IMG/VR virus record: IMGVR_UViG_3300006920_000004
Coordinates: 4,110-68,109 of that record
Source: a virus
Length of the DNA stretch: 64,000 bases
Reading direction: 5' to 3' (one strand)
Shown here in pieces: positions 1-64,000 of this stretch; the stretch's first letter is position 1; each line of letters opens with the position of its first letter. Position numbers and translations under genes: made by a program. Under the pieces are notes generated by a model that worked only from the letters and a program-made list of their open reading frames with translations, was not told where the DNA came from and did no database searches.

Positions 1-553
1 CTCCTTCATTTGGAACGCTTTTAAATTCTAAAACGCTTTCAGGGTTTTTAGTTTCGCTATTGTATTGCACCTTTACAATTTCCATTGATATATGACTACT
101 TGTTTTTTTGCCACCACCACGCACAGGCTTTTTGCACATCTTTTTACTTGCCTCACTAAATCGTTCAGTCGGTATTGGATTGTAGTTTGTTTTACCTTTT
201 GCAAAAACCAGTATGCTTTCGTGGTATCTCAATGGTTGATACTTTGCAGTAGCAAATCCTGTCCCTGTATTTTTTCTCCAAATCCATTCGTATTTAAAAA
301 GTTTAGGATTACTCATTACCAAAGCACTTGAAAATGGTTGTGAGGCAGTTAATACTATTGCTCCATTTGGCTTTATCAACCTTTCGTATTCCTTCCATAG
401 TTGTTCAAATGGTATTATTGTGTCCCATTTACAGGCAGTTGTTCCGTAAGGTAAATCACAAAGTATCATATCAAACATTCCGCTTTCCATTTGTGGCATT
501 AATTCCATACAATCACCTAAGTAAGTTTTATTTTTTTTAAAAATATTTGCCAC
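1..553 (-). CDS. DNA amino-methyltransferase (N6A/N4C, beta class), runs off the left edge
   Basis: Not in the ORF track because no stop lies in the window. Manual translation from GTG 553: MANIFKKNKTYLGDCMELMPQMESGMFDMILCDLPYGTTACKWDTIIPFEQLWKEYERLIKPNGAIVLTASQPFSSALVMSNPKLFKYEWIWRK...; GDC, DLPY and IW.K motifs. Confidence 0.9.
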   Translation of the reverse strand, partial: MANIFKKNKTYLGDCMELMPQMESGMFDMILCDLPYGTTACKWDTIIPFEQLWKEYERLIKPNGAIVLTASQPFSSALVMSNPKLFKYEWIWRKNTGTGFATAKYQPLRYHESILVFAKGKTNYNPIPTERFSEASKKMCKKPVRGGGKKTSSHISMEIVKVQYNSETKNPESVLEFKSVPNEG

Positions 554-623
554 CGCTCTAAAAAGTTTTAATAAAAAAGGTTTCCGTTTCCATATCAAGT
601 TTATCTAAAATTAACCGCACTAC

Positions 624-722
624 GCATAACACGGTATTTGTGCAAGTTTTGCCATTAACTTTTGTCCTCTGAATTGAGCATTGTGCAAGGCAAAACCTGA
701 CACAAATACCCAACCGTTATAG
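624..722 (+). repeat. attC-like imperfect palindrome (integron-cassette-type recombination site)
   Basis: GCATAAC (624-630) ... GTTATAG (716-722); arms GGTATTTGTG/CACAAATACC (633-642/701-710) and CAAGTTTTGCC/GGCAAAACCTG (643-653/689-699, one mismatch); one bulged base at 700; unpaired spacer next to the AAC/GTT boxes. Confidence 0.7.
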
Positions 723-790
723 GCAATAGGGCAGACGTTCTTCGTTTCAACATTTGTGGAAGAAAAAAAGAAAAAAAGCCCACCGCACTT

Positions 791-1549
791 TTAAAATAAT
801 TGTGGTTGAGATATTCTAATATTAAGTCGTTTTTCTGCATATTTACATTGTTCTTCTGATAATTCACTTCCTAAATAATTTCGTTTTTCAATAATACAAG
901 CATTGGCAGTTGTGCCAGTTCCCATAAAACTATCATAAATTAAATCATTTTCTTTTGTATAAAGTAACAATAGCTTTCTAACCAATTCGGTTGAGTAGGT
1001 TGCTTTATTTAAGTCGGTTGAATTATCATTATTTTTGGCAGTAATAAAGTTAAATACATTTTCATAAATAGCTTGTCCCGTTTCTCTTTCTTTCAACTTT
1101 TGCTTATTGCAGTTAAAAGTATAAAATTCGTCTTTTCTGCAAAAAACATAAATGTATTCAACTATCCTTGTCATTTTGTTATGTGATACGTTATTTGGTG
1201 TTGCCATTTGCTTTTTCCATACAATAATATCAGCTAAAGTAAAATCACTTTTTCTTATCAAATCAGCAATAACCAAACTCATTAAAATAGTGTTTTCAGT
1301 TCCATAACTCATATTGTATAAAACAACTCCATTTGGCTCTAAAATTTTATTATATCCTTTAAAAATATCTAAAGTCCAATCAATATACTCATCGTTTGTT
1401 TTATCGTCTTTATAAATATCGTAACCTCTATCAGTTGAGTTTGGTCTTATGATATTATAAGGCGGTGAAGTAATTACTGCATTTACTTTACCATCTAATC
1501 TTTTCATAGTTAGTAAGCAATCTTCGTTGTATATTTTATTTATTTCCAT
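791..1549 (-). CDS. DNA methyltransferase, probably N4-cytosine (beta class)
   Basis: NEDC, TSPPY catalytic motif, IVWKK, YDSFMGTGTT SAM-binding motif, GSEL. Confidence 0.93.
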   Translation of the reverse strand: MEINKIYNEDCLLTMKRLDGKVNAVITSPPYNIIRPNSTDRGYDIYKDDKTNDEYIDWTLDIFKGYNKILEPNGVVLYNMSYGTENTILMSLVIADLIRKSDFTLADIIVWKKQMATPNNVSHNKMTRIVEYIYVFCRKDEFYTFNCNKQKLKERETGQAIYENVFNFITAKNNDNSTDLNKATYSTELVRKLLLLYTKENDLIYDSFMGTGTTANACIIEKRNYLGSELSEEQCKYAEKRLNIRISQPQLF

Positions 1550-1573
1550 CCCTCTTTTTTTCTTTTTTTTCTT

Positions 1574-1656
1574 TAGTGCTTCGATTAAACATTTGTTTTT
1601 ATATCAATTTTAGTGCTTCGATTTCGCCACCTTCGGCAATCTGTAAACCGTTATCC
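1574..1656 (+). repeat. Truncated attC-like site (right half only)
   Basis: Ends in AACCGTTAT (1646-1654), identical to 712-720; CTTCGATTAAACATTTGT resembles CTTCGTTTCAACATTTGT near 740; the left AAC arm is replaced by a T/C tract. Confidence 0.5.
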
Positions 1657-1661
1657 TATTG

Positions 1662-1696
1662 CAAATATAAATACATATTGCAATATTCCTAATTAA
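1662..1696 (-). promoter_or_regulatory. Bacteroidota-type promoter driving the methyltransferase cassettes
   Basis: Minus strand TTAATTAG-N19-TATATTTG. Confidence 0.75.
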
Positions 1697-1707
1697 TCTT
1701 TTTTAAC

Positions 1708-2118
1708 CTATTTTCTTAATTGTCTGCTAAAAAACATTCCTATTTGGTCTTTGTTTACTACTGTAAAATCATGTTCGTTGCAGTATTTTACAGCGTGTTG
1801 TAAATCTCTACATAACATACTTTCGCTTCCATCGGTTCTTCTTGCTTTTACTTTGCTTGAACCGCTAATTATTTCTATTTTTACGTTCATTTTACTTGGT
1901 TTTGGTTTATATTCTTGAATGAAATTTTTAATTGGTGCTTTTAAATTACTAATTGTTATCGCTCCTAATGGGTAAGGATTTTTGTCTAGCTTTATTACTT
2001 TTAGTTCAAAACTGTTTGAGTATGTACGTTTTAACTCATTCGCAGATTTCCTCGTTCTTAATTGGAACGAGTTAATCATGCGAAAGTGAGTTTTGTTTTC
2101 CTTTACTACTGCATACAT
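1708..2118 (-). CDS. Hypothetical protein
   Basis: 136-aa ORF in a tightly packed minus-strand operon. Confidence 0.7.
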   Translation of the reverse strand: MYAVVKENKTHFRMINSFQLRTRKSANELKRTYSNSFELKVIKLDKNPYPLGAITISNLKAPIKNFIQEYKPKPSKMNVKIEIISGSSKVKARRTDGSESMLCRDLQHAVKYCNEHDFTVVNKDQIGMFFSRQLRK

Positions 2119-2191
2119 AATTAGTTAATCACAATTAGGTAAAAGTATGCTACAACAATACATCTAATTACTATCTGGTATATCGTGTCTT

Positions 2192-2383
2192 TCATAGCTG
2201 ATTAATAAATAAATGTTCTATCTCTTGAATGTTATCTCTACGCTCTTGCAAATGTATAGGTCTAAGTCTAGTATTTTTGCTTTGCTCTAACTTTTTTAGC
2301 TGTGCTTTTGAATTGTTAATGTATTTAATACTCATAGCGCACAATAACTGCCTTTGTTTTTCTGTGATGATTAACTGTTTCAT
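2192..2383 (-). CDS. Hypothetical protein
   Basis: 63-aa ORF translationally coupled to the upstream gene. Confidence 0.65.
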   Translation of the reverse strand: MKQLIITEKQRQLLCAMSIKYINNSKAQLKKLEQSKNTRLRPIHLQERRDNIQEIEHLFINQL

Positions 2384-2901
2384 TATGATTTATTTTTTTT
2401 GATTATTTGTTTAAGTTTACTGATATAGCTTTTATCCTCCGCATAAATATTTGATAATAGTTTAAAGTATTCCGCATCGGTTGTAATAAATAGCGCATTT
2501 TGTATCTGGAATGCTTTATAGTCAAGGATACAATCTTCTACTGATTCATACTTAGCATAAGTCCCGTAATCGTGGCTGTTAATGGCAAAAGTGAACCTTT
2601 GTGCAGCTACTCTCATGCCAAAACAGTTTAAATTGTTTTTAAACACTTGTGATTTAAAGTTACTGCTTTCAAGTATTGCCTGTGCGAGGACTATATGACT
2701 AAACTTTATTTTATGCTTTTCAAGGTTATCTCTAAAGCAGTTTATATCAATTTTTTCCTCTAAGCAAGTAGTTTTATCTACTTGCTTTTTGAGTGCATCT
2801 ACCTTTCTGCTGTTGAAAACTTCTGTGAATGTAATTCCTGTTGCAATGCCAATGATAAAAATTATTAATATCAATGCTATATCTCTTCTAAATTCTTTCA
2901 T
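2383..2901 (-). CDS. Membrane-anchored glucosaminidase (GH73 family) peptidoglycan hydrolase
   Basis: N-terminal TM helix; AQAILES catalytic motif, N.FGM, YAED..Y. Confidence 0.85.
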   Translation of the reverse strand: MKEFRRDIALILIIFIIGIATGITFTEVFNSRKVDALKKQVDKTTCLEEKIDINCFRDNLEKHKIKFSHIVLAQAILESSNFKSQVFKNNLNCFGMRVAAQRFTFAINSHDYGTYAKYESVEDCILDYKAFQIQNALFITTDAEYFKLLSNIYAEDKSYISKLKQIIKKNKS

Positions 2902-2905
2902 GGTT

Positions 2906-3145
2906 TTAAACTGTTTGAGCTTGTATGTTTAAAGGGTTAATTAATTTACCATCCATGATTATTTCTACTACTGTGTAGGTTTCTTCTGGCGTTATTCTAA
3001 GCATTTTACTTATGCTTTCCGCTGCTTTTATTCGCTCAACACAATGGTATTCTAATATTTTGATAATAGTTCTTCTTTGCTGTGCTGTTAGCTTTGTTAC
3101 TTTATTGTGTAACTCTGTGGCTAATTGTCCGTTGGTTAGTTTCAT
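2906..3145 (-). CDS. Hypothetical protein
   Basis: 79-aa ORF with A-rich start. Confidence 0.6.
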   Translation of the reverse strand: MKLTNGQLATELHNKVTKLTAQQRRTIIKILEYHCVERIKAAESISKMLRITPEETYTVVEIIMDGKLINPLNIQAQTV

Positions 3146-3311
3146 AATTTTTGTACTATTTTTATGTGGTTAATAATTATATCTTGTTTGATTGCAGTTA
3201 GCTTGCTTAACAATTTTATTGTTTTGATTGTTGGTTCTTGTAAATCTTCTTTTAATTGTAGGTTGTATTTAAAGCAGTCCACAATGTTTGCCTTTTGATG
3301 GCTGTTCATAT

Positions 3312-3509
3312 TTATTGTGCCTTTAAATTGTTGTCAATAAATTCAATGCCAATACATTTGCACATTAATTCTTCTGGATATGCTCCACAATTAAAATATG
3401 CACCAATGAAGTATGCTTTTGCTTCATTTTCAGTTACTGCTCCGCTTACATTTGTGCTGTAATTATTACTAGCATCTTCAAATTTTACATTTATTGTGTT
3501 TAGTTTCAT
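3312..3509 (-). CDS. Small hypothetical phage protein
   Basis: Likely start MKLNTINV at 3509 after an A-rich leader. Confidence 0.65.
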   Translation of the reverse strand: MKLNTINVKFEDASNNYSTNVSGAVTENEAKAYFIGAYFNCGAYPEELMCKCIGIEFIDNNLKAQ

Positions 3510-3522
3510 GTTTTTAGTTGGT

Positions 3523-3789
3523 TTAATTACTAGGTTTATATTTATAACTGCCAAAACTTATAACGTGTTTTTCAATTATTGAATTTACATTTGCTGTGCT
3601 GTCGTTACATTCCTTTGCTACTCTTCCGACTAATTTTCTGTAAGTTAAGCACCCATTGTTAAATAGTTCAATAGCATATTTTGCTTTTACGAGATTTTCG
3701 TTTTCCCAATAGTATTTTACATCATTAAAATACTTTACTTGAATGTCTGTTGCTACTTTGTTAAAAAAGTTTTCTGTTGTATGTATCAT
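3523..3789 (-). CDS. Hypothetical protein
   Basis: 88-aa ORF in operon. Confidence 0.65.
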   Translation of the reverse strand: MIHTTENFFNKVATDIQVKYFNDVKYYWENENLVKAKYAIELFNNGCLTYRKLVGRVAKECNDSTANVNSIIEKHVISFGSYKYKPSN

Positions 3790-3794
3790 GTGTT

Positions 3795-4004
3795 TTAGTT
3801 TTTGTTATATCTTATTTGACCTTGTTTTATTTCTTTCCATTTGCCATTGTATTTGTGCGCAATTTCATGTGCAATATAACCGCAATTATATCTGCAAGTA
3901 ATTGTTAGATAACCGTTTTTTGTAGCAAAGTTTTTTGCTCCTCGTTCTGTTTTTGATGTGTCAATATGTACTCCATTGAGTAATACTCCATAAATGTTTT
4001 GCAT
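3795..4004 (-). CDS. Hypothetical protein
   Basis: 69-aa ORF preceded by the repeated leader motif. Confidence 0.7.
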   Translation of the reverse strand: MQNIYGVLLNGVHIDTSKTERGAKNFATKNGYLTITCRYNCGYIAHEIAHKYNGKWKEIKQGQIRYNKN

Positions 4005-4048
4005 AATTTTTTGTGTTTTTAAATTTGTTTGAAATTGTATGTTTAAAA
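4002..4048 (-). repeat. Repeated ~45-bp intergenic leader, copy 1 (others at 4937-4987 and 5695-5740)
   Basis: Plus-strand consensus TGTGTTTTTAAATTTGTTT-N6-GTATGTTTAAAA adjoining the start codon. Confidence 0.65.
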
Positions 4049-4219
4049 TCTTTTATTAGTTTGTTGAAGTCTTTTTATTTGCATTCTATCTGATTCAAAT
4101 AATATTTGTCTTTCGATAGGCTGTAAATCTTTGTTTGCATCCACAGTCCTGTTAATTAAGGGCTGTGGGTATGTTGCTTTTAAAATTTCACTTGCTAGTT
4201 TTAGTTGTTGGCTGTTCAT
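4043..4219 (-). CDS. Small hypothetical protein
   Basis: Likely start MNSQQ at 4219. Confidence 0.55.
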   Translation of the reverse strand: MNSQQLKLASEILKATYPQPLINRTVDANKDLQPIERQILFESDRMQIKRLQQTNKRF

Positions 4220-4223
4220 AATT

Positions 4224-4427
4224 TTAAATATAATTTTCGTAATAAAATGATTGTTCAACAATGGGTAATTGTGTTTTTAAAACAATATGTTTATTGTTTA
4301 TTGGCGCAATTCCATAACCAAAATGTATTGATAGTCTTTCTATCACTTGCTTTTTGGATGTTGCTTGTATTTGTATTTTTTGCTTTTTGTCTAAAGCTTT
4401 TGTTATTGTTACAATATAATTTTTCAT
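4224..4427 (-). CDS. Small hypothetical protein
   Basis: Likely start MKNYIV at 4427. Confidence 0.55.
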   Translation of the reverse strand: MKNYIVTITKALDKKQKIQIQATSKKQVIERLSIHFGYGIAPINNKHIVLKTQLPIVEQSFYYENYI

Positions 4428-4467
4428 AATTTTATGTGTTTTTACTAAGTTTTTGTTTTTCATAATT

Positions 4468-4656
4468 TTAATTTATGTTTTCTCTTTTATTTGTTTCTTT
4501 TAAAATACTTTCGTATAAATTTGTTAATGTAGTTTGTATTGAGGTGGGCAAATAATTTGAAACGTGTCTGTATGCTTCAATTTCAGCATCAATACTTACA
4601 GCAAGTGAGCATAATTCACTCAATTGATTATCATCTAATTTTTTTAATGTTTTCAT
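4468..4656 (-). CDS. Small hypothetical protein
   Basis: Likely start MKTLKK at 4656. Confidence 0.55.
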   Translation of the reverse strand: MKTLKKLDDNQLSELCSLAVSIDAEIEAYRHVSNYLPTSIQTTLTNLYESILKETNKRENIN

Positions 4657-4657
4657 T

Positions 4658-4939
4658 TTATAGTTCGTTTTTATACATTTTATACAAAATTGCTTCGCTT
4701 GCATCATAACTTAAATGTGTTGCATCTTTGTTTATTCCGTCTCTCCACGTTGGATTTATATCATCTGATTTAAGGCTTTTAATAGCCTTTCGCAAGTCTT
4801 TTTTTGCCAATGATACACTATCATAGATAAGAGTGAAAGAGTTAAACATTGTGTCTTTTTTACTTTCGTAATTTGATAATTTTGAGAGTATTCTAAAATT
4901 ACCTCCGATTTGTCCTTTAATTAAAATTTGTGCTTTCAT
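4658..4939 (-). CDS. Hypothetical protein
   Basis: 93-aa ORF preceded by the repeated leader. Confidence 0.7.
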   Translation of the reverse strand: MKAQILIKGQIGGNFRILSKLSNYESKKDTMFNSFTLIYDSVSLAKKDLRKAIKSLKSDDINPTWRDGINKDATHLSYDASEAILYKMYKNEL

Positions 4940-4981
4940 GAGTTTTTTGATGTGTTTTTTAATTTGTTTGTGTTTGTATGT

Positions 4982-5176
4982 TTAAAATATTTGATTTAAG
5001 TATATAGGCTTTACAGTATAATTGTGTTTTAACTTGTAAGTTTGCCCACTTATAAACAGGTCGGCAAAATCGGAGGGCTGTAAACTTTCGCAACTGTGTA
5101 GCTTTAAAATTTGCCTTGTGTTTTTGTCGGCTGTTGATATGGCTATAATTGTGCCTTTAAAATATATTGCTTTCAT
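4982..5176 (-). CDS. Hypothetical protein
   Basis: 64-aa ORF. Confidence 0.55.
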   Translation of the reverse strand: MKAIYFKGTIIAISTADKNTRQILKLHSCESLQPSDFADLFISGQTYKLKHNYTVKPIYLNQIF

Positions 5177-5183
5177 GTGTTTT

Positions 5184-5507
5184 TTAGTTGTTTAAATATG
5201 CTTTTGAAATTCTTAAAATATAATTAGGGTTGTCTGTGTGTATAGGTTCAATTTTATCAATAAATTTGCACATATCGACATTGCCCATTAAATTATATTC
5301 ACTTTCAAATGTTGGTTTAAATTCTGTATAAAAAAACGGCTTGCCAATTCTAAACCAAAAGCCTATATTATCAGGGCTGTTTAATGTGTACAAATTATTA
5401 AAAGAGTCCTTAAAACTTAAATAGTTATTTTTTAAAATAAAACTATTGAAGTACCCTGTTTTATATGCTTTTTTTGCTGTTTGCTTTAAAATTTTTTTAG
5501 TATTCAT
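5184..5507 (-). CDS. Hypothetical protein
   Basis: 107-aa ORF. Confidence 0.6.
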   Translation of the reverse strand: MNTKKILKQTAKKAYKTGYFNSFILKNNYLSFKDSFNNLYTLNSPDNIGFWFRIGKPFFYTEFKPTFESEYNLMGNVDMCKFIDKIEPIHTDNPNYILRISKAYLNN

Positions 5508-5520
5508 AATTTTATTTTAT

Positions 5521-5697
5521 TTATGTGTTTAAAAATATTTCCTGTTTATCTCTTTTTTCTTTTAAAATGTTTATACTTTCGCAAAGTTCAAATATTAATT
5601 TTGATTTATTAAAAAGCATGTAACAATCTGTTTTTTCAACTATTTTAAGGGCTTTTTCAAGGTTTAAAATATCTTTTTTAATTATTTCTATGTTCAT
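5521..5697 (-). CDS. Small hypothetical protein (58 aa)
   Basis: Manual translation MNIEIIKKDILNLEKALKIVEK...; preceded by repeated leader copy 3. Confidence 0.55.
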   Translation of the reverse strand: MNIEIIKKDILNLEKALKIVEKTDCYMLFNKSKLIFELCESINILKEKRDKQEIFLNT

Positions 5698-5748
5698 GTG
5701 TTTATGTGTTTAAAATTTGTTTAAAAATGTATGTTTTAAAGGCTGTTT

Positions 5749-5844
5749 TTATAACAGTTCTATTATTATAAAAACTGTTAAAAATAATATAAATAAGCCT
5801 ATAATTTGCCCTATTGAAAGGAAGATGTTTATTATTGTTTTCAT
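5749..5844 (-). CDS. 31-aa hydrophobic membrane peptide
   Basis: MKTIINIFLSIGQIIGLFILFLTVFIIIELL; fills the intergenic gap. Confidence 0.5.
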   Translation of the reverse strand: MKTIINIFLSIGQIIGLFILFLTVFIIIELL

Positions 5845-9154: not shown

Positions 9155-9430
9155 TTATTTCTTTTTAAATTGTTCAATTAACCATTCTTTAAAACACCAA
9201 GCATCCTCATTGTTTGTATAAAGTCTATATTCTAACCATTTTTGCTCTATATCATTTTCCATTTCTTTGGCTTGTTCGCATTTCATTTTCAATATAGTTG
9301 TTGCTGTCAATATAGCATCAATTTCTTTTTTTAATGATTTGTCTTTTTTAGCTAAATCAATGTACATTTTTTGCTGTTGGTTAATTTCTTCTTCTAACCA
9401 TCCAACTGCCGTTATCTTTTTATTTTGCAT
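9155..9430 (-). CDS. Hypothetical phage protein
   Basis: Likely start MQNKKITAVGWL at 9430. Confidence 0.65.
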   Translation of the reverse strand: MQNKKITAVGWLEEEINQQQKMYIDLAKKDKSLKKEIDAILTATTILKMKCEQAKEMENDIEQKWLEYRLYTNNEDAWCFKEWLIEQFKKK

Positions 9431-10094
9431 ATTTATATATTGTTTGTAGTGATACGTTAATGCCATTATCTGCAAGTTTTTGTTTAATATCTTTCTTAGG
9501 TACACCATTTTGAGATAGTGACTGTACGAGAGTAAATCCTATGGGTGATTTCTTCTCATATACTCTGTGAGATGCTACATAAGCCATTTGTTTTTTAGCA
9601 GTTTCTCTGTTTTGTAACGCTCCATTACCGAGAGTAGATATAATTCTACCTGCTTTTGTGGTATATTCTCCATCAGCTGCTATTCTAGCTTTTATTACTT
9701 GTAATGCCTTAGAGGTTCTTTCGGAAATCATTTTACGTTCTCTTTCAGCTAACGAGGCAAAAATATGCAAAGTAAAGTTATCAACTTCCTTAAAGTCAGC
9801 GCAAATAAATTTAACTTTACTCTCCATTAAAGAACTAATAAAGTAAACATTCCTTGATAACCTGTCTAATTTAGCTACTACTAATGTTGCTCCATGTAAT
9901 TTACAAGTATCAATAGCTTCCATAAGCATAGGTCTGTTGTTTTTCTTACCTGATTCTACTTCTGTGAACGATTTAATTACAATTCCATTGTCGGTAATTT
10001 CCTTTACAGCTTTCTCTTGTGCTTCAAGCCCTAGTCCACTTCTACCTTGTTCTTGGGTACTAACCCTAAGGTAAATACAATATTTCTGTGTCAT
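9420..10094 (-). CDS. Small serine recombinase (resolvase/invertase)
   Basis: YLRVSTQEQ (catalytic Ser), E..SGK..NRP, VAKLDRLSR, AERER..ISERT, C-terminal HTH. Confidence 0.92.
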   Translation of the reverse strand: MTQKYCIYLRVSTQEQGRSGLGLEAQEKAVKEITDNGIVIKSFTEVESGKKNNRPMLMEAIDTCKLHGATLVVAKLDRLSRNVYFISSLMESKVKFICADFKEVDNFTLHIFASLAERERKMISERTSKALQVIKARIAADGEYTTKAGRIISTLGNGALQNRETAKKQMAYVASHRVYEKKSPIGFTLVQSLSQNGVPKKDIKQKLADNGINVSLQTIYKYAK

Positions 10095-29032: not shown

Positions 29033-29075
29033 GCCCTCCATGCCTATCAACGATGCACACTTGGAGGGCTTTTTT
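29033..29075 (+). terminator. Intrinsic terminator with a 21-nt loop
   Basis: GCCCTCCA...TGGAGGGC-TTTTTT. Confidence 0.75.
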
Positions 29076-36757: not shown

Positions 36758-36829
36758 TGCGAGTAGGAGAAGTGGTAACTCACGAGGCTCATAACCTTGA
36801 GATACTTGGTTCGATTCCAAGATTCGCAA
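36758..36829 (+). tRNA. tRNA with CAT anticodon, initiator (fMet)-like; no encoded CCA
   Basis: Acceptor TGCGAGT/ATTCGCA, D stem GAG/CTC (A11:U24), anticodon arm CGAGG-CTCATAA-CCTTG, T arm CTTGG-TTCGATT-CCAAG; promoter TATATTTG at 36747. Confidence 0.92.
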
Positions 36830-63184: not shown

Positions 63185-64000
63185 ATGAAAGTACAGAGAG
63201 TAATAATAAACGAGTTCAAGAAGTTAAAGGACATAGACGTAAATTTAGATGGTAAAAACGTATTTGTTAAAGCAGAAAACGGTGTAGGCAAATCTACTTT
63301 TATGCAGTTCATAGAAATTGCACTAGGAAGTAAAGCTGCTGTACCACCAGATGCCAAAGGTGAAGGTGTAGTTTTAGTTGATAAGAATGGAGTTGATTAC
63401 GAACTTAAAGTTAAGTTTAAAGATGGTAAGAGTGTTATAACCGTTAGCGGAGAAGGTTTAAAAGACAATTCTAAATCAGCTATTGCTCAATTAGTAGGTA
63501 AGATAGACTTTGATGTAGATGAATTTGTAAAGATGTCCGACACAAAGAAAGGACAGAAAGACCAAGTAGAAGCATACAGAGATATGTTAGACGAGGAAAC
63601 TAAAATATTCTTACGCAAGATTGAGAATACTATCAAGGCTTCATTTGACGACAGAACCGAACTAACAAGTAAAGTCAAACAACACAAAGCATGGATACAA
63701 GAAAGCCCTTTGTTTGGCAAAGACTTAGACATAGAACCTTTAGATGCTGCTGAAATTCAAATGGAGTTAGAGAGTGCTAACAAGAAAAATATTCAAGTAG
63801 ATAAAGTTTTAGAGAATTTAGAGATAAGGACTAAAGACATTGCTATTTGGGAGGAGGAAATTAAACACATACAAGCTAAAATTTATGCTGCTAAACAATC
63901 AGATGAGTTAGCTTCTAAGTGGATTCCTAATAACCCTAAGATAGATGTAACAACTATTACTGCTAAGTTTAACACAATAAGTGAACATAATAAGAGAGCA
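63185..64000 (+). CDS. SbcC/Rad50-like ATPase, runs off the right edge
   Basis: Manual translation MKVQRVIINEFKKLKDIDVNLDGKNVFVKAENGVGKSTFMQFI...; Walker A then coiled coil. Confidence 0.85.
   Translation, partial: MKVQRVIINEFKKLKDIDVNLDGKNVFVKAENGVGKSTFMQFIEIALGSKAAVPPDAKGEGVVLVDKNGVDYELKVKFKDGKSVITVSGEGLKDNSKSAIAQLVGKIDFDVDEFVKMSDTKKGQKDQVEAYRDMLDEETKIFLRKIENTIKASFDDRTELTSKVKQHKAWIQESPLFGKDLDIEPLDAAEIQMELESANKKNIQVDKVLENLEIRTKDIAIWEEEIKHIQAKIYAAKQSDELASKWIPNNPKIDVTTITAKFNTISEHNKRA

Follow-up and report, generated by a model that had tools for sequence, protein, structure and literature searches.

A four-gene methylase cassette array in a phage genome and its probable place in an integron-like gene-capture system of phages infecting Flavobacteriia-type hosts

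The stretch of DNA analysed here (the window, 64,000 nucleotides [nt]) covers bases 4110 to 68109 of the 68,109-bp IMG/VR phage record IMGVR_UViG_3300006920_000004, with 4.1 kb more lying to its left, and it carries at its left end part of an array of methylase genes separated by hairpin sites that resemble attC, the site that delimits integron cassettes. The record has direct terminal repeats (Table 1), is rated complete, and has 31.5% G+C. The array runs from genome position 2304 to 5762 and consists of four cassettes whose genes are all methylases or methylase-like. Its sites, which all lie inside 3.5 kb, are three complete elements, a half site, and a junction of flank and TAAC core that closes the array; window positions 1 to 1653 form its promoter-side half. 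In a whole-genome scan, motifs of core plus flank were clustered at the array only. An earlier note, made from the letters of the window, had described two methyltransferase (MTase) genes in reverse orientation with an attC-like imperfect palindrome between them. Both parts of this description held, as the genes of cassettes 1 and 2 (MTase2 and MTase1) match an N6/N4 methylase family on the minus strand (Table 1), and the palindrome arms at 633-650 and 693-710 are 83% complementary, with a DNA fold that pairs 631-715 and with the extra base that had been pointed out. The other two genes are F (229 amino acids [aa]), which has C5-methylase-like motifs read by eye and no Pfam match, and H (211 aa), with a weak C5 methylase match of 17.9 bits, below the cut-off of 22. 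The products of the four genes most likely protect the phage DNA from host restriction. For the cassette 1 methylase, 195 relatives were confirmed in IMG/VR, of which 80 were kept. In its nucleotide sequence, the core of MTase1 (window 177-472) shares 70-77% identity with methylase genes from phages of Polaribacter, Flavobacterium, and Staphylococcus, a conservation across hosts that is unusually high for a phage gene.

The complete site in the window scores -28.4 kcal/mol in the core-plus-arm scan, and on the gene-sense strand its stem contains a single extra base together with G.T oppositions. The 192-nt spacer in which it lies gave z = -2.95 for the minus-strand RNA fold and just z = -1.62 for the plus-strand DNA fold. 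On its strand of the 68,109-bp genome, the box AACCGTTAT occurs at 712 and 1646 only, at both ends of the 934-nt unit from GTT to GTT (716 to 1650) that the earlier note had delimited. A blastn-short search for further copies of the two spacers within the genome returned A-runs only, and the other elements of the array, too divergent in sequence, were recovered by structure alone. In the suggested comparison with Rfam, no family matched, and a search of window 1-2400 at E-values up to 10 gave nothing relevant, Flavo-1 included. To the left of the window, where the note had made further sites a condition of its reading and had predicted a GTTATGC box, that box lies at genome 3843-3849, 7 nt past the stop of MTase1, whose flank-TAAC core is at 3846-3843; this is the core of a 125-nt element, and two more sites and the terminal junction follow.

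The second site of the window had been described as half of a related site, and comparison bears this out: the site shares 87% identity over 78 nt with the left portion of a 125-nt element that is intact in the related locus L013 (loci are numbered L001 onward). It joins the leader of cassette 1 within a motif, AAATGTTnAAnCGAAGCA, that loop and leader have in common, so the right arm, its GTTA core, and the hairpin belonging to cassette 1 were lost by recombination there. Fused to this half site, cassette 1 is fixed in place at the promoter end, as had been supposed. The leader is retained before homologous genes elsewhere (Table 1), and the trailer corresponds to a 73-nt block found after the homologous genes in L001 (twice), L004, L013, L033, and L055 (nhmmer E 4e-17 to 4e-15). 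A motif near AAATGTTnAAnCGAAGnAC recurs at window 737-757, 1576-1596, and 1613-1623 and in the loops of 125-nt elements in L013, L044, and L085, thus in leaders, trailers, and long-element loops and always on the gene-sense strand; it may be a protein-binding site or a phage promoter, and recombination at this motif truncated the half site. Of the phage promoter claimed upstream of the array, only a TATATTTG box was seen, which reads from 1669 to 1662 on the minus strand and would fit a Bacteroidota -7 consensus, TAnnTTTG. A sigma-70 promoter scan gave no excess (8 found against 7.0 expected).

Table 1. Positions of the array, its sites, and related features; a slash marks the end of a TAAC core
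Feature	Position	Strand	Basis or remark
Cassette 1 gene (MTase2), N6/N4 DNA methyltransferase, 252 aa	window 791-1549	-	Pfam N6_N4_Mtase E 1.6e-37
Cassette 2 gene (MTase1), N6/N4 DNA methyltransferase, 283 aa	window 1-598, on to genome 3856	-	Pfam N6_N4_Mtase E 3.1e-30, full length
Complete attC-like element	window 627-719	-	TAAC (719-716), 5-nt bulge GGTTG, imperfect 21-bp stem, 36-nt loop, GT, GTTA (630-627)
3' flank tgcgtagtgcgg (gene-sense), start of cassette 2	window 615-626	-
Trailer of cassette 1	window 720-790	-	contains ACAAATGTTGAAACGAAGAAC; ends in flank ccctattgccta before TAAC
Leader of cassette 1	window 1550-1593	-	motif AATGTTTAATCGAAGCACTAAAG plus A-rich run; kept before homologous gene in L001, L004, L013, L033, L055
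Half site (truncated element)	window 1594-1653	-	TAAC (1653-1650), bulge, left arm, first loop motif; right arm and GTTA core absent
Possible Bacteroidota-type -7 promoter element, TATATTTG box, upstream of array	window 1662-1669	-	read from sequence
Complete element, 125 nt	genome 3722-3846		core/arm scan; contains GTTATGC box
Element, 62 nt	genome 3027-3088		core/arm scan
Terminal junction gcagcttgcgta-TAAC/tagtcgattgg	genome 2304-2307		left end of array
attI-like junction TAAC/TACTATATGTA			array-linked recombinase loci
TAAC-AT...CT-GTTA hairpins upstream of XerA-like genes	L172:52-131, L174:7738-7819, L177:7271-8964		Woesearchaeota, Pacearchaeota, another archaeon
Helix-turn-helix-like cassette, weak hits	L083 4932-4981, 8050-8099, 13207-13256, 17916-17965, 18750-18799; L044 7946-7995; L082 5004-5053
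Small serine recombinase, 224 aa	window 9420-10094	-	Pfam Resolvase 90.3 bits
Direct terminal repeat, 124 bp	genome 1-124 and 67986-68109 (second copy = window 63877-64000)		fits complete, circularly assembled genome

The two ends of a cassette are complementary to each other. The flank that opens cassette 2 is reverse-complementary at 9/12 positions to tagcattacgca (genome 3858-3847), the flank preceding the TAAC that ends the same cassette, and all three mismatches between tgcgtagtgcgg and tagcattacgca give G.T on the gene-sense strand; cassettes 3 and 4 likewise match at 9/12 positions of their 12-nt flanks. The same rule runs through the wider family described below, where it was followed at the triplet level by 169 of 209 unique cassettes: the three bases that come after GTTA in one element are the exact reverse complement of those preceding TAAC in the next. 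The flanks on either side of one and the same hairpin match in this way in 24/307 cases, and randomly paired flanks in 6.7%. Such a pattern would be a signature of circular cassettes, as in integron cassettes, and would not be expected from homologous exchange.

Relatives of the sites were sought with a scan for TAAC and GTTA at a spacing of 40-180 nt and with inner arms able to pair as a duplex, which superseded an earlier scan with too little arm offset (5 matches against 3 in shuffles). At -16 kcal/mol it returned 111 sites, distributed over 85 loci, where shuffled sequence gave 8; at -18 kcal/mol the numbers were 105 and 2. The family comprised 156 copies with 125 distinct bodies, and 307 elements once the recombinase loci were added. 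Members occur in IMG/VR phage contigs as well as in cultured phages of Flavobacterium and Polaribacter: 52 elements lie across 50 kb of a 170-kb viral contig, with an element after nearly every gene in the part numbered L044; the cultured Flavobacterium phage filifjonk9-1 has 14 in its first 12 kb; Polaribacter phage P12002L has short members; and L001 carries two tandem methylase cassettes with leader, trailer, and hairpin laid out as in the window. Read in the gene sense, an element runs flank-TAAC-G, bulge, stem-loop-stem, T-GTTA-flank, with the consensus A-T-T-G-C-nnn-TAAC-G-K-T-T, stem-loop-stem, T-GTTA-K-nn-G-C-W-G-K. The spacer is a one-sided bulge of 3-5 nt in 132/156 copies, and a T.G opposition is conserved in the outer box of 89/125 elements. 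The gene-sense strand is the more stable one in 109 distinct elements and the complement in 15 of the 125 (DNA parameters, p = 4e-18), the corresponding counts with RNA parameters being 98 and 26. In attC sites the recombining bottom strand carries AAC at its 5' end, and the gene-sense strand of the phage elements likewise has the AAC of the breakpoint side, described next, at its 5' end. Two GenBank coding sequences annotated as hypothetical proteins coincide with hairpins of this family (L084, MN812206.1, 2733-2837; L089, MN812220.1, 2321-2425), and several such short coding sequences in these phage records are probably not genes.

Gene gain and loss at the cores, which the earlier note had expected, is seen in relatives of the window and among cultured phages alike. 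In the former comparison, 3 of 19 relatives had similarity reaching beyond the gene of cassette 1; these three, L001 (97%), L004 (75%), and L013 (72%), all begin to match at window 1593 and stop at 716, 715, and 713, within the AACCGTTAT box. The match of L006 to the fourth cassette (95.6% over 742 nt) ends at the last base of the terminal TAAC. Five cultured Flavobacterium phages have backbones about 99% identical, with cassettes gained, lost, and permuted. Of 121 internal alignment endpoints among them, 60 lie within 35 nt of a core, against a mean of 15.2 and a maximum of 25 in 1000 random trials, and several of the "far" endpoints actually fall at TAAC half sites absent from the element list. 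Five different last cassettes meet one backbone at the identical nucleotide, ATAAC/TACAATATTAC.

The side on which these breaks fall indicates which gene a hairpin accompanies. Among the 60 near-core endpoints, 54 are at TAAC, the upstream core, and 6 at GTTA, the downstream core. In 26 homologous cassette pairs from different records, 15 of them informative, the upstream hairpin was the more similar one in 13 and the downstream one in 1. In several element types, moreover, the loop contains the start codon of the next gene, and the coding sequence for its N-terminus runs through the right arm, GTTA, and the flank; the third cassette of this genome is of this kind. Taken together, the TAAC breakpoints, the co-inheritance, and the coding of N-termini place the hairpin with the gene downstream of it, and genes that travel in this manner are reversed relative to the integron convention, as the earlier note had held. 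On the plus strand of the window, one cassette reads TTA-flank, reversed gene, flank-TAAC, hairpin, G, which is the integron format with the gene turned round.

No match to a tyrosine recombinase (PF00589) or to a Y1 transposase (PF01797) was found in the whole genome. The earlier statement that the window holds no recombinase is accordingly correct for the tyrosine type and overlooks a small serine recombinase (Table 1); the latter was set aside as the enzyme of the array, being absent from 5/5 other array-bearing records. A candidate enzyme emerges from the 170-kb contig, whose single tyrosine recombinase (298 aa) has its first in-frame ATG about 47 nt beyond the last cassette, which ends in ...ATAAC. 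This protein is colinear with Pyrococcus XerA (4a8e, E 1.4e-44), and its alignment with IntI4, at 80-178 and 204-275, is interrupted by 25 residues, against 68 in IntI4, which means that it lacks the IntI-specific domain. In NCBIfam it scores 206 for XerA_Arch against a cut-off of 220, and 154.8 bits for the integron integrase TIGR02249 against 265; all 19 aligned members of the family fit in 300 columns. A profile of these 19 homologues led to 80 viral loci, 41 of which had at least 36% identity and at least 2.5 kb of upstream sequence. Elements lay within 2.5 kb upstream of the recombinase at 38/41 loci (102 elements) and downstream at just 3/61 (4 elements), and a terminal TAAC with a triplet matching the last element was present at 39/41. 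About 27 loci read TAAC/TAnTATATGTA with the ATG of the recombinase 52-53 nt further on, so that the end of the array and the recombinase look like an attI-integrase module (Table 1). The cellular-genome scan yielded no close bacterial relatives; the best matches, 36-45% identical, are XerA-like proteins of DPANN archaea, and three such loci have TAAC...GTTA hairpins upstream (Table 1), background hairpins in the archaeal contigs being mostly without the geometry of the family.

The cargo was surveyed in cassettes of the whole family, 187 of which have a median unit length of 658 nt (range, 192-2211). Among the 150 largest of 180 non-redundant cassette open reading frames (ORFs) of at least 50 aa, Pfam identified 31 N6_N4, 2 MT-A70, 2 Dam, 1 D12, and 1 C5 methylases, together with 3 PAPS_reduct, 2 TET-associated glycosyltransferases (TAGT), 2 DUF4326, 1 Tad3 (Thoeris inhibitor), 1 YopX, and a few acetyltransferases. 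Most of the 150 had no Pfam match. The recognizable cargo consists mostly of DNA-modification genes, accompanied by a few others that are candidates for a counter-defence role. One small gene, which includes a stretch resembling a helix-turn-helix, occurs in at least seven cassette copies in the 170-kb contig (Table 1), has an internal TAAC...GTTA pair that was scored as a weak 50-nt match, and could encode an accessory DNA-binding factor.

From these comparisons, we put at roughly three in four the probability that the array is part of an integron-like gene-capture system of phages infecting Flavobacteriia-type hosts, here with no integrase of its own and either served in trans or frozen. A cassette, in the direction of its gene, would comprise a folded site (bulge and stem-loop-stem), the GTTA core with a variable flank, a leader, the gene, and a closing flank with its TAAC core. 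We infer that the gene-sense strand folds as single-stranded DNA and that a tyrosine recombinase exchanges strands at the 5' TAAC; cassettes would then leave as circles in which the two flanks pair, and their re-insertion would take place at the promoter-distal end, where the array meets an attI-like junction. In this genome, a Xer-type recombinase would have to come in trans from a co-infecting phage or a prophage, and otherwise the array would be frozen. The earlier note had already proposed an enzyme acting in trans, which suits the absence of one here and the Xer-type enzyme beside arrays elsewhere. Its suggestion of an IntI-type enzyme needs correcting, the recombinase beside related arrays being Xer-like and lacking the IntI-specific domain, and its placing of the capture site under the promoter did not stand, as relatives by analogy put the capture junction at the opposite end. 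With somewhat less assurance, we also favour the broader proposal that Bacteroidota phages have an integron-like platform of their own, with a Xer/XerA-type enzyme without the IntI domain, an attI-like junction 52-53 nt away, arrays of up to at least 52 cassettes that are delimited by strand-asymmetric folded sites and filled chiefly with DNA-modification and other candidate counter-defence genes, and reversed genes, and that in phages lacking the enzyme, such as the present one and the cultured Muminvirus phages, the arrays are reshuffled in trans.

Several points weigh against this interpretation. The whole case is built by comparing sequences, and the mechanism is deduced from them. The flank rule is broken at one position or more in 40/209 cassettes. 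The invariance of TAAC and GTTA arises by construction, both having been fixed in the scan, and P12002L has CAAC and GTTG variants; the core also tends to depart from the integron consensus, the base after GTTA being T in 73/125 and G in 33/125 elements, and the bulge is one-sided. The 121 endpoints reduce to about ten junction places in five near-identical genomes, are not independent, and include one junction on the GTTA side. The stability of the sense strand could equally be explained by a role in the transcript. No tyrosine recombinase is present in this phage, in four cultured Flavobacterium phages, or in P12002L, and the array here may be a fossil. The linkage of recombinase and array could in part be conserved gene order in one phage lineage, the 41 loci not being independent; 3/41 of them have no upstream element, and about 12/39 terminal junctions are not at 52-53 nt. 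Finally, the methylase calls for genes F and H depend on motifs read by eye.

The nearest rival is that the array is a fragment of a canonical integron, a cluster of attC sites lacking an integrase (CALIN), whose sites are ordinary attC served by a host or plasmid IntI with its IntI-specific domain. In its favour are three hallmarks of integrons: AAC...GTT cores, a stem-loop layout, and the flank rule. The attC layout of inverse core AAC, stem, loop, stem, and GTT is present in the window's element and in 306 others, and the start of a cassette is complementary to its own end rather than to the adjacent site; two or more sites lie within a few kb with no integrase, which makes the array a CALIN provided that the sites count as attC-like. 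Integrons, CALINs, and the phage arrays further share single- or few-gene units, imperfect palindromes, an integrase beside a simple capture site, and methylase cargo in phages, with sites of the present family in P12002L. The integron core consensus is RYYYAAC / GTTRRRY, and in the phage elements, where AAC and GTT were fixed by the scan, the purine run after GTT is often broken. We nevertheless consider this rival improbable. An integron would have an IntI-clade integrase with an additional domain near patch III; none is encoded in the genome, and the array-adjacent enzyme is of Xer type, colinear with XerA and with 25 residues in place of the 68 of IntI4. In integrons, promoterless genes run in the direction of the site and are read from a promoter next to the integrase, whereas here the genes are uniformly reversed, pointing to the capture junction and the recombinase, and some cassettes carry TTTG...TAnnTTTG boxes of their own. 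The phage arrays also differ in that the hairpin may encode the start of the next gene, in the one-sided 4-5 nt bulge, in the outer box with its T.G opposition, in a consensus core of GTTA-K rather than GTTRRRY, and in reaching at least 52 cassettes per phage contig.

Published work bears on this rival from both sides. According to Qi et al. 2023, Front Microbiol (PMC9892861), 10,705 phage genomes were screened and 17 attC clusters without integrase were found, among them a P12002L cluster with two methylases and "divergent" site directions; the methylase cassettes were five in total, and IntI1 recombined 5/6 of the phage sites tested. One of the two P12002L sites was among those recombined by IntI1, and P12002L has members of the present family, of which that site may be one. 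The main text of the same study does not name Flavobacterium phages, yet one such phage has 14 elements; its supplementary tables may list more. So few published clusters beside a phage with 14 elements suggest that standard models mostly miss these sites.

A second rival, which we hold to be slightly less probable still, sees the elements as intergenic regulatory hairpins, acting as terminators or in RNA processing or stability, with genes shuffled by homologous recombination between repeats, as has been proposed for the promoter-stem-loop cassettes of T4-type phages. The hairpins do sit between co-transcribed genes, and the strand of the transcript folds better and carries the G.T oppositions; leaders, trailers, and loops have a motif in common, and the half site arose by recombination within it. 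Homologous exchange does not, however, predict complementary cassette ends (81% against 6.7%), nor that five unrelated cassettes should meet the backbone at one nucleotide with no shared sequence past the core. It leaves unexplained why a dedicated recombinase should start at a constant distance (52-53 nt) from the terminal core, and the stems are without a following T-run. That the hairpins themselves are mobile, whether as miniature palindromic elements or through a single-strand transposase acting on IS200/IS605-type ends, is very improbable: the elements are strand-asymmetric and one body occurs three times in L044 with different flanks on both sides, but the genome has no Y1/HUH transposase, the flank logic runs across genes and not across single hairpins (169/209 against 24/307), and indels in cultured phages carry gene and hairpin together.

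For the integron-like reading, parallels exist outside integrons proper. The cholera-toxin phage integrates by means of host XerCD acting on folded single-stranded DNA at dif, and by this analogy a Xer-type enzyme without the IntI insertion could use a one-strand hairpin; that case is unlike the present one in being a one-off integration of a whole phage by host enzymes, with no cassette array bearing its own recombinase. In the accessible text of Smyshlyaev et al. 2021, the IntI insertion is described as not fully conserved in an integron-like subgroup. Ghaly et al. 2022, Sci Adv (PMC9668308), report 539 archaeal attC sites and six IntIs only. Some of the archaeal attC arrays that have no IntI assigned to them may, in our view, be served by Xer-type enzymes; the archaeal integrases described in that article carry the IntI domain, and the host domain and site sequences differ from those of the phage system. 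Sedentary chromosomal integrons have likewise been presented, in the available portions of a preprint (bioRxiv 10.1101/2024.07.02.601686), as a cassette bank for the arms race between phage and host, whereas the present arrays are on the phage side and hold DNA-modification genes and a Tad3 homologue rather than defence systems. In Flavobacterium phages, a missing methylase was linked to low plating efficiency by Nilsson et al. 2020 (PMC7077304), an article that in its accessible portions does not mention palindromes, cassettes, or hairpins. Our literature search turned up no account of cassette arrays accompanied by a Xer-type recombinase in Bacteroidota phages, nor of the gene orientation or the scale. 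Phage attC clusters with methylases are known only in outline, and the present family differs from integrons in enzyme, gene orientation, and site details.

If this interpretation is correct, the arrays would offer a testable mechanism for the gain, loss, and rearrangement of anti-restriction genes in virulent phages whose backbones are otherwise nearly the same, and would explain why plating efficiency among cultured Flavobacterium phages goes with whether a methylase gene is present. The data suggest that anti-restriction genes pass between phages of Flavobacterium-type hosts in the form of preassembled cassettes. A Xer-type enzyme without a supposedly essential domain would then carry out cassette recombination on folded DNA, meaning that single-strand cassette recombination needs no IntI insertion, which bears on the origin of integrons, and the arrays would be a viral mirror image of the bacterial integrons that store defence genes. 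Several hundred small cassettes, mostly without known function, would become candidates for counter-defence genes. Current integron finders would probably miss such arrays, some of whose hairpins GenBank annotates as small proteins.

The best public holders of the region are freshwater metagenomes, where the public runs were covered as contigs only. An 845-nt contig from another study, a lake sample, spans genome 4849-5702, the unit of the second methylase, with 18 differences and stops on both sides, and in the best public holder contig breaks fall at genome 4832 and 5694. Five joints in public contigs (three skip joints, two back-joints) had low depth, short sides, or A-rich repeats and were not used. 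At Rfam gathering scores, the 64 kb of the window gave only two matches: a borderline abiF RNA at window 29034-29069 (plus strand; 37.7 bits against a gathering score of 37) and a tRNA at window 36758-36829 (plus strand; 55.9 bits), with the anticodon loop CUCAUAA and the anticodon CAU.

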